Positions 3,001 through 6,000 of a DNA stretch of 18,526 nucleotides are shown piece by piece (positions within the stretch are counted from its first letter, which is position 1; every line of letters starts with the position of its first letter). The DNA is from a virus (lineage: Duplodnaviria; Heunggongvirae; Uroviricota; Caudoviricetes): the IMG/VR virus record IMGVR_UViG_2695420863_000007; one strand, given 5' to 3'. The position numbers were made by a program.

Positions 3001-6000
3001 ATCTGACAACTGAATTCCGCCATCCTTAATGCTCCAGCCCTGCGCAGCAGCCTCTCCGGCTGCCGGCAGCAGGGAGATTGTGCGAACGGACGTATCTGCA
3101 GACGGACCCGATGGCGTGTTGCCGCCGGGCGAGGGTTTGATTTCCGGTGCCTTACCACTGATGAAGGCTGAGGTGCGCCCGGCTGCGTTCAGAATAGCGG
3201 TTGCCAGACGATCCGGAATAATGCTCCTGCGCGCCCATGAACTGAAATGTGTCGGGCGGTTTGATGATACCTGGTTTCCATTCGTTCTCGATGCCGCACC
3301 GTAATATCCTGATGCCGGAATATCCGGATCTTCTGCCGGCGCGTTAGTGGCGGTATTGACGCCGTTACCGTCTGTCATGAAGGGCACAAAATAAACGCCC
3401 TCACTCTCCCTGTTTTTATACCCGCCGTACACGGTGTCGTATTGGGTAGCGTATGTATTTTTCCAGTAATACGTCGTGTCACCACAAATCCACGGCACAT
3501 CTGCAGCGCTGCCACCATGGCACTGCGCGTTAAACACGGAGAGGTCAGCACGAAACTGTGTCAGCATGGCTGTAAACAGCGCAGGTTGCTGTGCGTGGGT
3601 GGCGGCGCTCATGTCAAACTCACCCTGCATCCAGCAGACGGCCAGCAGAACGTTTTTGGGATTTTTCTGCAATGCCGCTTTTGTGCGGGAAATCAGATCC
3701 TGATATAACGGCTTGCCCACCCCCCAGCGTGCCGAATCCTGACTGGCCCCCGTGGACTCGCTGAATGTCCCCTCCGCGCCCTGGGTAAATGCCGAACCAC
3801 CACGACAGCATGGTACCAGCAGGATCCCCGCGTTATTCGGGATATACGGGAGCAGTTTTTTGGCAATATGTAAACCCTGGCCGACACAGCCGTACTGCCC
3901 TTTGCTCAGGTCAGCCCTCGGATGATTCAGCGTACTCATATCCTGCACATCATGCAGACAGTGGTCAGCCGGAATAATATCGTTATATCTGCAGGCAGCC
4001 CCGCCCGGCGTCACTGTACTGCGGCGCGCCAGCTGTTTAATGCGCGGATCCGGAGCATCGTATGAATCCGGCAGCGGAAGCCCTTCACCGTAAGCCATGG
4101 CATTGGACTGCCCGGCCAGTACGATGACGTAGTACCAATCCGGCTCAGATGAAGGGCCGACCTGTGGCTCTCCTTCAATAGCCACCGCCTGCATCAGTGT
4201 GTACGGCGTAATGGCAACCGGTCCGCCGTATGGCTGCCAGCCCTCTTTCAGTTTGTGTGTCAGCTTTTCCGCAAGGTCTGACGGCGACGCCGCCCTGACA
4301 ACATCGTAATGTTTAATCGACATCGAATTTCTCCCGTGTACAGGAACAGAGTTAAAAAGCCGGAACCGGAATCAAATCACAGGATGACCATCTGCCAGTG
4401 GCAGGTCATAAAAAAAAGCTGCGCAATGCGCAGCCAGAACTCACAAGGAAAATGATAAAAGGAATAACACTAGTGATGTACGCATGGCGCCTCCCGCTAA
4501 GTTCTGCAATGATCAAACAGAACTCGCTACGTGCCCTTAAAACTCGATCATTTAGCCCCTCCAAGGAGGATTCACCATGCGGTTGGTTTTTTAATAAACA
4601 GTAAACAAAAAAGTCAAGAATTATTCATTCTGTTCTTTCATCATCGGCCACAGCAATACCACAATGCCGCAGACCAGAGCGCCATCAGTCAGTACCAACA
4701 TTATCCTGCTGGTGAAATCCATCATCACCATCACTAAAAGCAGGATCACAACAGCAAGCAGACACAGTTTATAAAACAATGTTCAGAAAACGCATTCAGC
4801 ATGCCTGAGGTTCTATTCCTACGAATAGCCAACTTGCAACTTAAAATATTATTTATGCAGCCAATTAAATTCTGGTCCTTACAATATCAACCTGAAGATT
4901 CTTATCTTGTGCTGATTGATAAATGACAAACCTTTTACTACCTGCATTGAAAGAAGTAGACAAAACCAGACAATTATCATAACGAGCAAGAACATAATAC
5001 CAACCATCATTATAATTAATCATTTCATATTCTTTCTTAAACTGTGGTTTGTAATATCCTGTCAGAAATGAAAAAAGCCAGAAATATGCCACAAAAGCAA
5101 TCATCACAATCTCAAAAAAATGTTTTTTATAAATGGCTTATCATAGAAGCATGATACCGATAAAAATCGCCCATAAGATCTTATCGAAATTGTAACCGCC
5201 AGCGCAATCGCTGCTGACAGTAGCAAAAGAGGTACCTGAATCTTCTGTCTCAATATAGAAAACTCAATAATTGCCGGCACAAACAATAATTCCACAGCAA
5301 AATAAAGGCGAAATACATTTAGCTCTTGCATAGAATGTTTTCTTTTCACTGCGAAAAAGAATACAACACCAATACCCCAACCGATAAGAAATATAGCAAT
5401 GACGATAACTGCAAAAAATAAACTTCTGGCAACATCATCAACACCTGCACCTACAATCCACCATGGGAAGCCGTAGTAAAAAGAAGTACCCCATCCATAG
5501 AAATAAGCACTCCCCCATCCAAGGCATCCCATGTAGGCAATAAAAAGTGAAGAACTCCTGAGCAGCGCACCATCCTTCATAACCACCCCAATACAAGATG
5601 ATAACATTGGCTTACAACTCATAACAAAAGCAATTCAATGCCGTCAAGAGGTTACAGGCTAAAAAAACTCTATTACATTGCAGTCAGCATGTTTACTACA
5701 CAAATACAATTCAGAGCATAAAAACTACTCGGCGGCAGGTTATTGAGCTCATCAATGACATGTAAAAAACGCCCATTATTGGTGTCAAGTTTCCCCAAAG
5801 TTATTCAAAAAGTCAATATTATGCCGTTAATATGTTGCCATCCGTGGCAATCATGGCGCTAACGTGTGATCGCATTCAAAATGTTGTCTGCGATTGACTC
5901 TTCCTTGTGGCATTGCACAACCAGAGCGTCATACAGCGGCTTAACAGTGCGTGACCAGGTGGGTTGAGTAAGGTTTGGGATTAGCATCGTTACAGCGCGA

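Follow-up and report, generated by a model that had tools for sequence, protein, structure and literature searches.

An apparent pair of coupled membrane-protein genes in the stx slot of a lambdoid phage is probably a single, frameshifted gene of the STM1630 family

In Stx phages the interval between the antiterminator gene Q, with its late promoter pR', and the genes for lysis and the yjhS/nanS-p esterase carries the toxin, the gene order of phage 933W being NinG-NinH-Q-pR'-tRNAs-stx2AB-yjhS-S-R. In phage 434 the Q gene is of the Q82 type, and a good terminator hairpin lies upstream of CPT_434_68, annotated as a 'putative membrane protein' (UMO75332.1, 247 aa), which is followed by a DUF3927/TciB-like gene, a terminator and a SASA esterase. 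A relative of the latter membrane protein is found in Salmonella Typhimurium, where STM1630, an uncharacterised inner-membrane protein of 238 aa, is encoded in AT-rich accessory DNA that adjoins sseJ and steB. STM1630 is macrophage-induced and belongs to a gene set co-regulated with SPI-2 (PMC6785131, PMC2639726); its deletion gave no intramacrophage phenotype (PMC6785131), was hypermotile in one high-throughput screen (PMC4219756) and was later re-made without a resistance cassette, in order to limit polar effects (PMC4534456).

The locus discussed here lies in an 18,526-nucleotide stretch of DNA from a Caudoviricetes record (IMGVR_UViG_2695420863_000007), referred to in its full length as the window. 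From the sequence of this stretch it had been proposed that the stx position is occupied by two translationally coupled genes, for a 172-aa polytopic membrane protein and an 80-aa protein with an N-terminal hydrophobic segment, acting as a toxin/immunity pair or in superinfection exclusion or abortive infection. The analysis presented in the following leads to a different reading, to which we assign a probability of about 0.93: the minus-strand interval 4865-5580 would be one gene, a moron for an inner-membrane protein of approximately 238 aa, split by a frameshift in a run of six adenines (A6).

Gene order and transcription signals at the locus

The overall setting agrees with that of the original prediction (table 1). 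The 933W gene order identifies the locus as the stx slot, with the same position from Q/pR' to the nanS-p type esterase and lysis genes, but with a membrane protein as cargo and no tRNA genes, instead of toxin and tRNAs. The AT-richness of the cargo was also confirmed, the GC content over positions 4750-5650 (0.31-0.42) being lower than in Q (0.47-0.52) and nanS-p (0.53-0.61). Lying between Q/pR' and the lysis genes and differing from its flanks in composition, the locus has the characters of a lambdoid late-operon moron.

Table 1. Coordinates and description of the features at the locus (window numbering).
Feature	Coordinates	Strand	Description
Antiterminator Q (lambda type), upstream	5859..6482	-	Pfam Antiterm, E 4e-57
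pR'-type late promoter and qut/Q-binding element	5788..5816	-	TTGACT-17 nt-GAAACT
ORF1 (172 aa)	5104..5622	-	N-terminal four predicted helices, then six out-of-frame residues (NIFLRL) and TGA
tfpB/STM1630-family gene as in the window	4865..5580	-	716 nt, against 717 nt in the intact allele
A6 run, frameshift site	5123..5128	-	A7 in the intact allele
ORF2 (80 aa)	4865..5107	-	Residues 159-238 of the intact protein: last predicted transmembrane helix and C-terminal beta domain
DUF3927 ('TciB-like') membrane protein, 52 aa	4621..4779	-	PF13064, E 3.4e-14; phrog_1470
Intrinsic terminator closing the moron block	4417..4435	-	GGCTGCGC-ATT-GCGCAGC then T8
nanS-p type esterase, downstream	2473..4323	-	DUF1737 + SASA + DUF6645; RefSeq 'SASA family carbohydrate esterase'
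S21-type holin	1819-2025		
Lysozyme	598-1131		

The promoter and qut element align column-for-column with the 'promoter, similar to lambda PR'' and 'Qut site' annotations of phage mEp234, and the same stretch also matches the Q/pR' regions of HK97, HK022 and mEpX1. From this arrangement the gene would be transcribed from pR'. In contrast to phage 434, the window has a lambda-type Q and pR', and the stretch homologous to the phage 434 terminator no longer folds as one; in the window, the interval from pR' to the gene showed no detectable terminator, so that the product may be made even without Q. On the downstream side the two phages agree, with the DUF3927/TciB-like gene, the terminator and the SASA esterase as shared neighbours.

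The predicted intrinsic terminator exists on the minus strand, with an 8-bp stem that includes six GC pairs, a U8 tract and a calculated stability of −15.6 kcal/mol (z −3.3), and is also annotated in phage 434. The two ORFs and this terminator are not adjacent, however, since the DUF3927 gene, which belongs to the same moron block, lies in between; one more small ORF is possibly present between the 80-aa ORF and the terminator. The DUF3927 gene is called TciB in the phage 434 annotation and 'DUF3927 family protein' in RefSeq. The TciB label applies to this 52-aa neighbour only and not to the split gene; it is a homology-based guess and says nothing on the tfpB/STM1630-family gene. In phage P1, tciA/B/C are non-essential (PMC10695390).

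A single frame interrupted at a run of adenines

Both minus-strand ORFs are present as originally described, ORF1 opening at an ATG at 5622 and overlapping ORF2 at g-TGA-TGA (TGA stop, 5106-5104; GTG, 5107-5105; ATG, 5104-5102). Their appearance as two ORFs is explained by the lack of one A from a run of seven. At the break, the sequence of phage 434, phage 2B8 and most E. coli loci is ATAAAAAAAC (A7), and in alignments with the two phages, TB354, HEC0475 and UTME-9 the A-run is the sole indel within the gene. Addition of one A yields a stop-free ORF of 238 aa, or 247 aa from an upstream ATG, the product of which has 100% amino-acid identity with phage 434 UMO75332.1 and with the RefSeq entries WP_001302581.1 and WP_001299184.1 (the second of 238 aa, from E. 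coli TB354), which are named 'STM1630 family protein'. The ATG at 5580 (MKDG...) is the likely start, preferred over that at 5622 because it matches the 237-238-aa homologues, and ORF1 would then comprise 158 codons rather than 172.

The course of events can be outlined as follows. With the codons ATA AAA AAA (Ile-Lys-Lys) one A short, translation from the ATG at 5580 would leave the frame after residue 152 and end at the TGA at 5106-5104, and the last transmembrane helix and the beta domain would remain in the other frame, to be read as a separate ORF. Downstream of the A6 run are C, A and a T7 run (5114-5120). The GTG and ATG 'starts' of ORF2 correspond to the internal Val159 and Met160 codons of the intact protein, and Met160 is not conserved, being Leu in the close relative L014. 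The A-run itself would be a slippage-prone by-product of AT-rich codon use.

Comparison with other genomes supports the presence of one gene, and none of the observations speaks against it. With 90-nt probes run against 5426 complete E. coli genomes, the locus was found in 682, with A7 as the exact best match in 667 and A6 as the best match in only 11 (1.6%). Every A6 allele that was checked (HEC0477, UTME-12, AUSMDU00014361, A25, PE164 and E105) is annotated by RefSeq/PGAP as one pseudogene, 'hypothetical protein; frameshifted', and the sister strains HEC0475 and UTME-9 carry the intact gene. In PHROGs, ORF1 matches phrog_14371, a family of 158-aa fragments, and residues 1-140 of phrog_1521, and ORF2 matches positions 143-222 of the same phrog_1521 as well as phrog_3985.

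The family can be recognized over the full length of the restored protein, as judged by precomputed labels and the RefSeq name: all 108 matches bear the precomputed Pfam label PF27470 'TfpB', whereas searches of Pfam and NCBIfam copies that lack PF27470 gave nothing above noise for the two ORFs or the restored protein. An ORF of the Moraxella pilin inversion may bear the same name, tfpB. A profile search gathered 70 family representatives. Twenty full-length homologues share 44-68% identity and more are found at 12-30%, all of them single proteins of 230-262 aa; the sources covered, down to an identity of approximately 25%, are Salmonella (STM1630, 46% identity), Citrobacter, Shigella pINV, ETEC LT plasmids, Haemophilus and Neisseria. 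Invariant residues are found on either side of the break. The family motifs GWGSAYFYGWG..YYGFPWW, ARSL, YFW.FSF..G.YKPQ.KKEY and WYYVLARY, conserved in STM1630 as well, are all present in the window ORFs, the last two in the ORF2 part. Where dS is unsaturated, residues 1-158 give dN/dS values of 0.05-0.17 and residues 159-238 values of 0.06-0.24, which clearly point to purifying selection on the family across the junction.

In the window, the single polypeptide of approximately 230-260 aa with a helical membrane part and a C-terminal beta domain is obtained only after restoring one nucleotide; with its frame broken at A6, the family member present in the window is therefore represented by a disrupted allele. 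Of the two outcomes named in the original prediction as speaking against a gene pair, that the ORFs are a remnant of a known gene is what was found, in the form of a frameshift, while a lack of purifying selection was not, as the low dN/dS values in the family indicate.

Mutation, sequencing error and functional explanations of the A6 allele

Under the one-gene reading, A6 may stem from a mutation that inactivated the gene recently, or it may be a homopolymer error of the consensus. The latter, with the organism carrying an ordinary intact A7 gene, has to be considered seriously and is in our opinion somewhat less than an even chance. It would account for the rarity of A6 and for its scatter over unrelated strains and downstream of different Q types, and is consistent with the presence of four homopolymer runs of at least 6 nt in the gene, with a private 1-nt deletion in the window at 5748, and with sister assemblies of the same studies that differ only or mainly at homopolymers or other indels. 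Thus, the nearly identical UTME-12 and UTME-9 show three indel differences over 2 kb; the further UTME-12 indels in this region fit homopolymer sequencing error, as does the occurrence of the 158-aa fragment in early 454-era drafts. On the other hand, the exact 158-aa product has been deposited at NCBI from other E. coli strains by several independent projects (P0170, 17 contigs), and the A-run is the only difference between HEC0477 and HEC0475 over the 2 kb compared, which argues that the HEC0477 assembly is not generally error-ridden here. Furthermore, real mutations by replication slippage are also common at A7 runs.

That the split allele is itself functional appears unlikely. According to this proposal, the four-helix N-terminal fragment and a signal-anchored C-terminal fragment, made by reinitiation at the GTG/ATG of 5107-5102, would reassemble in the membrane. 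The overlap of these codons with the stop permits coupling, so that reinitiation could yield both halves, the break falls in a loop that is predicted to be cytoplasmic and to connect helices 4 and 5, and the C-terminal fragment would start with its own transmembrane helix. However, the restart has no good Shine-Dalgarno sequence, the N-terminal fragment gains six foreign residues, and the split form is fixed in no lineage among the 682 E. coli loci and the homologues. It may be added that the GTGATGA overlap is kept at the downstream piece, and that split membrane proteins can sometimes reassemble.

Even less probable is a functional A7/A6 switch, either by phase variation (on/off by slippage) or by programmed −1 frameshifting or transcriptional slippage, the last two giving both the full-length protein and a truncated product of approximately 156 aa. 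Two heptamers of the intact allele, A_AAA_AAA and T_TTT_TTT, lie in the register for −1 slippage, a TGA follows at once in the −1 frame, and A6 occurs downstream of different Q genes and in strains that have A7 sister strains. The tract is not conserved, though: in L014 the same Ile-Lys-Lys is spelled ATA AAG AAG, and the run is absent in the homologues of the ETEC plasmid, of C. rodentium and in two of Salmonella, which makes it a hot spot for slippage or sequencing error rather than a programmed device and led us to reject programmed frameshifting and phase variation. In addition, a −1 shift cannot rescue A6, which needs a +1 shift, and a 1.6% off-state does not exceed what is expected for a 7-nt run.

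The original reading of two separate translationally coupled genes, expressed late under Q as a toxin/immunity, exclusion or abortive-infection pair, finds some justification in the stop/start overlap, the two hydrophobic products and the position in a moron slot, but is now very improbable, as only 1.6% of the loci, those one A short, show a pair at all, homologues from at least six genera are all fused, the internal Met is not conserved, RefSeq treats the A6 allele as a pseudogene and none of 5027 defence-system models matches. A toxin/immunity pair in particular was rejected because the ORFs are fused everywhere else.

The intact protein, its relatives and its possible role

A polytopic membrane protein is indeed encoded at the locus, as had been stated, and the supposed separate 80-aa protein would be the C-terminal part of the same polypeptide. 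The AlphaFold model of the intact protein, built from 38 sequences (pLDDT 85, pTM 0.78; an earlier model from 21 close sequences, with pLDDT 57, was discarded), shows five long helices and, C-terminal to them, five strands. From hydropathy and charge distribution, with the positive-inside rule, the protein would cross the membrane with five helices, N-terminus in and C-terminus out, so that the five-stranded C-terminal beta domain of approximately 55 residues is predicted to face the periplasm. A PDB sequence-profile search gave no match at E <= 1, and no relative of the modelled protein was found among solved and viral structures. The possibility that the locus is a transporter remnant was dropped because no transporter family or fold was matched. 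No evidence for exclusion or abortive infection emerged: when the intact protein, nanS-p, the small ORF and the product of the DUF3927 gene were compared with the PADLOC-DB models, none gave a match at E <= 0.1. A literature search on the names TfpB, DUF3927 and tciA/tciB returned nothing on the window gene.

Family members adjoin eltAB on ETEC plasmids, sseJ in Salmonella and LpxR in C. rodentium, and are present on Shigella pINV, but the distant Pasteurellaceae homologues are located among housekeeping genes, so that the link with virulence DNA is not universal. STM1630 differs from the window gene in being chromosomal with its own promoter, rather than part of a prophage late operon. The protein may tentatively be given an accessory role, in the envelope or in lysogenic conversion, as a factor carried along with virulence DNA of horizontal origin, rather than one in lysis, toxin/immunity or exclusion, although we regard this as doubtful. 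A more far-reaching version, in which TfpB would be an unrecognised accessory factor of acquired virulence DNA with a defined envelope role (for example in the release of toxins or effectors, or in phage exclusion) and A7 perhaps an on/off switch found 'off' in the window, is highly improbable.

The gene is already catalogued, and its A6 allele is flagged in public annotation as a pseudogene belonging to a named family. The present case illustrates that false 'coupled gene pairs' can arise in AT-rich morons through homopolymer indels, and draws attention to the TfpB/STM1630 family as one of small, sharply conserved membrane proteins that are found in prophage late operons, in the virulence-associated DNA of Shigella, ETEC and Salmonella, in Pasteurellaceae and in Neisseria.

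A gene split at a run of A's

The two overlapping minus-strand ORFs of the original prediction are present as described, with the AT-rich composition reported for them (GC content of 0.31-0.42 over both ORFs, compared with ~0.5 for Q and 0.53-0.61 for the esterase gene downstream), the stop codon of ORF1 (TGA, 5106-5104) sharing bases with the GTG (5107-5105) and ATG (5104-5102) of ORF2. Rather than a two-gene cassette, they are one known, uncharacterised gene, in which a 1-nt homopolymer deletion is carried or mis-assembled. The region shares 98-99.9% identity with a stretch carried by phages 434 and 2B8 and, among 5426 complete E. 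coli genomes, by 682; a single CDS spans both ORFs in the records of the two phages and of E. coli TB354. Their four-way alignment with the window revealed one difference that matters, namely a run of six A's (A6) in the window where the other three have CCATTTATAAAAAAACATTTTTTTG (A7). Addition of one A to the window gene gives an uninterrupted 238-codon frame with a product identical to the RefSeq protein WP_001299184.1, so that the 80-aa 'second gene' is the C-terminal part (residues 159-238) of this protein, with the internal Val159-Met160 as its GTG/ATG 'start'. In PHROGs, the intact protein is phrog_1521, and the two pieces belong to phrog_14371 (158 aa) and phrog_3985 (79 aa), both families of fragments.

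Features of the window and of the comparison sequences (L-numbers)
Feature	Position	Strand	Basis or remark
ORF1, 172 aa	5104-5622	-	ORF reading
ORF2, 80 aa	4865-5107	-	ORF reading
A6 run	5123-5128	-	A7 in phages 434, 2B8 and E. coli TB354
NinG, NinH, phosphatase, Q (Pfam Antiterm)	upstream of ORFs
pR'/qut, lambda-type	5816-5788	-	alignment with annotated pR'/qut of phage mEp234
Stretch homologous to phage 434 hairpin	5745-5708	-	mutated
DUF3927 gene, 52 aa, 'TciB-like', membrane protein	4621-4779	-	phrog_1470
Terminator	4435-4417	-	real
'Hypothetical protein' pseudogene	~4300-4540 (L004, 1562-1802)	+	RefSeq; frameshifted, N-terminally truncated
DUF1737-SASA-DUF6645 esterase, nanS-p type	2473-4323		downstream of ORFs
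S21-type holin and lysozyme	downstream of ORFs
CPT_434_68 'putative membrane protein', 247 aa	phage 434
'Phage protein'	phage 2B8		covers both ORFs
WP_001299184.1 'STM1630 family protein', 238 aa	E. coli TB354
Phage 434 terminator hairpin	L001, 2976-3014		9-bp, then U8
Phage 434 LpxR gene	L001, 810-1769		just upstream of Q
ETEC-plasmid family member	L009-L012, 5001-5714		59% identical
C. rodentium LpxR gene	L013, 3863-4823		appears as two ORFs
pWR501 family member (S. flexneri)	L031, 135269-135985 of record		57% identical

Frequency and origin of the A6 allele

In a census with 90-nt probes differing solely in run length, 667 of the 682 genomes had the A7 probe as their exact best match, and 11 had the A6 probe. 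The allele is already known, being marked in public annotation as a frameshifted pseudogene: at all six A6 loci inspected (HEC0477, UTME-12, AUSMDU00014361, A25, PE164 and E105) RefSeq has one pseudogene, 'hypothetical protein; frameshifted'. These loci sit behind differing Q genes (e.g. Q82-type in E105). A6 recurs, as shown by these loci and by the deposition of an identical truncated protein of 158 aa for other E. coli strains (P0170, 17 contigs). The sister strains HEC0475 and UTME-9, each from the same study as an A6 strain, have A7, run length being the sole difference in 2 kb between HEC0477 and HEC0475, and UTME-12 has further indels near the A-run. From sequence alone, each A6 case may be either a true mutation by slippage or an error in the homopolymer consensus. 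At 5748 (intergenic, minus strand GATGAG^CTC) the window is without a T found in HEC0477, HEC0475 and UTME-9, and UTME-12 is two bases short at the matching site, pointing either to a site that varies or to indel errors in the assemblies concerned.

A programmed-frameshift site or a phase-variation switch is invited by the frame of the intact allele, ATA AAA AAA CAT TTT TTT, both heptamers of which lie in the -1 slippery register with a TGA shortly downstream in the -1 frame, but was rejected because the tract is not conserved among relatives, Escherichia sp. MOD1-EC7003 having the same Ile-Lys-Lys as ATA AAG AAG, and the ETEC-plasmid, Citrobacter and Salmonella homologues having no run here. 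Since the gene, being AT-rich, has several runs of 6-8 nt, the A-run is treated as an apparently incidental hot spot.

Family, conservation and predicted structure

Searched against 5.8 billion proteins, the restored sequence gave 108 matches, all (108/108) with the precomputed Pfam label PF27470, displayed as 'TfpB' in context tables. Full-length members (236-238 aa, 44-68% identity) occur in E. coli, C. rodentium, Cronobacter, Klebsiella, Enterobacter, Salmonella and Yersinia. Only 70 representatives were recovered when 1.84 billion were searched with a profile. Distant full-length members, to ~12-30% identity, have 230-262 aa (with one outlier of 307 aa), and those that were traced belong to Neisseria dumasiana, Avibacterium and H. 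ducreyi. None of the full-length homologues found, close or distant, has the split form, and invariant residues flank the break on both sides in their alignment. The dN/dS values of the restored gene versus homologues (Nei-Gojobori) are 0.05-0.17 overall and similar for residues 1-158 and 159-238. These comparisons indicate that the gene truly encodes a protein and that purifying selection acts on it as one frame; the degraded remnant of a known gene envisaged as a counter-case in the original prediction is found as far as a known, frameshifted gene is concerned, but not the loss of purifying selection. The E. coli prophage gene also turns up in a MAG labelled Veillonella sp. (contig of 3054 bp), 99.6% identical in nucleotide sequence to the window over 1,041 nt (gene and DUF3927 neighbour); this copy is almost certainly a binning contaminant.

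A confident structure model from 38 sequences (pLDDT 85, pTM 0.78) predicts helices at 12-45, 56-88, 98-120, 125-145 and 164-190 and a five-stranded beta domain at 193-244 (247-aa numbering), the frameshift falling in the loop that precedes the last helix. The five modelled helices agree with the proposed polytopic membrane protein. An N-in/C-out topology would fit hydropathy and charge distribution, with the K/R-rich loops 78-91 and 133-160 (238-aa numbering) probably cytoplasmic and the beta domain periplasmic. Homology and fold searches, as initially suggested, yielded the PF27470 homologues, but no relatives in the PDB (sequence-profile search), among viral models (Foldseek) or among defence models (PADLOC).

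Genomic setting and possible role

The assignment to the position where Stx phages carry stx is borne out by the flanking genes and by the gene order of phage 933W (Q-pR'-tRNAs-stx2AB-yjhS-S-R). The terminator placed after the ORFs is real, but does not directly follow them, the DUF3927 gene, which had escaped the original prediction, lying in between. The latter accompanies the family gene at all E. coli prophage loci examined, and its TciB name traces to a putative, homology-based label in phage P1. The plus-strand pseudogene overlaps the terminator and the nanS-p start; at its site an intact CDS of ~130 aa replaces nanS-p in strains A25 and PE164.

Phage 434 has a good terminator hairpin (-12.5 kcal/mol, z -3.6) directly before the gene, whereas the homologous stretch of the window has no terminator fold (-4.6 kcal/mol, z -0.7). 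No intrinsic terminator was detected in the window between pR' and 4435, the first convincing one downstream of pR' being that preceding nanS-p. In lambda pR' is constitutive and, if this also applies here, the moron block could be transcribed from pR' without Q.

Close homologues adjoin the LT toxin genes eltAB on ETEC plasmids (~870 bp away in divergent orientation, amid IS elements and with STb, estB, a few kb off), sseJ in Salmonella (STM1630) and the LpxR lipid A deacylase gene in C. rodentium; phage 434 also has an LpxR gene, a repeated pairing of two morons related to the envelope. Shigella pINV also carries a close homologue (106 plasmid records), annotated only as hypothetical; the single record examined, that of pWR501, shows it within an IS-rich region. 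The distant Pasteurellaceae homologues are lone genes amid housekeeping genes.

STM1630 is induced in macrophages and belongs to a gene set co-regulated with SPI-2 (PMC6785131, PMC2639726), and its promoter is inactivated in ST313 (PMC6785131, PMC2639726, PMC4219756, PMC4534456). Its deletion gave no intramacrophage phenotype (PMC6785131), and hypermotility was reported from one high-throughput deletion screen (PMC4219756); a later study rebuilt the deletion without a resistance cassette, to limit polar effects (PMC4534456). With both ORFs being one protein, a toxin/immunity pair finds no support, nor does exclusion apart from the location, PADLOC defence models giving no match. The best, if tentative, guess is that the gene may encode an accessory envelope or lysogenic-conversion protein.
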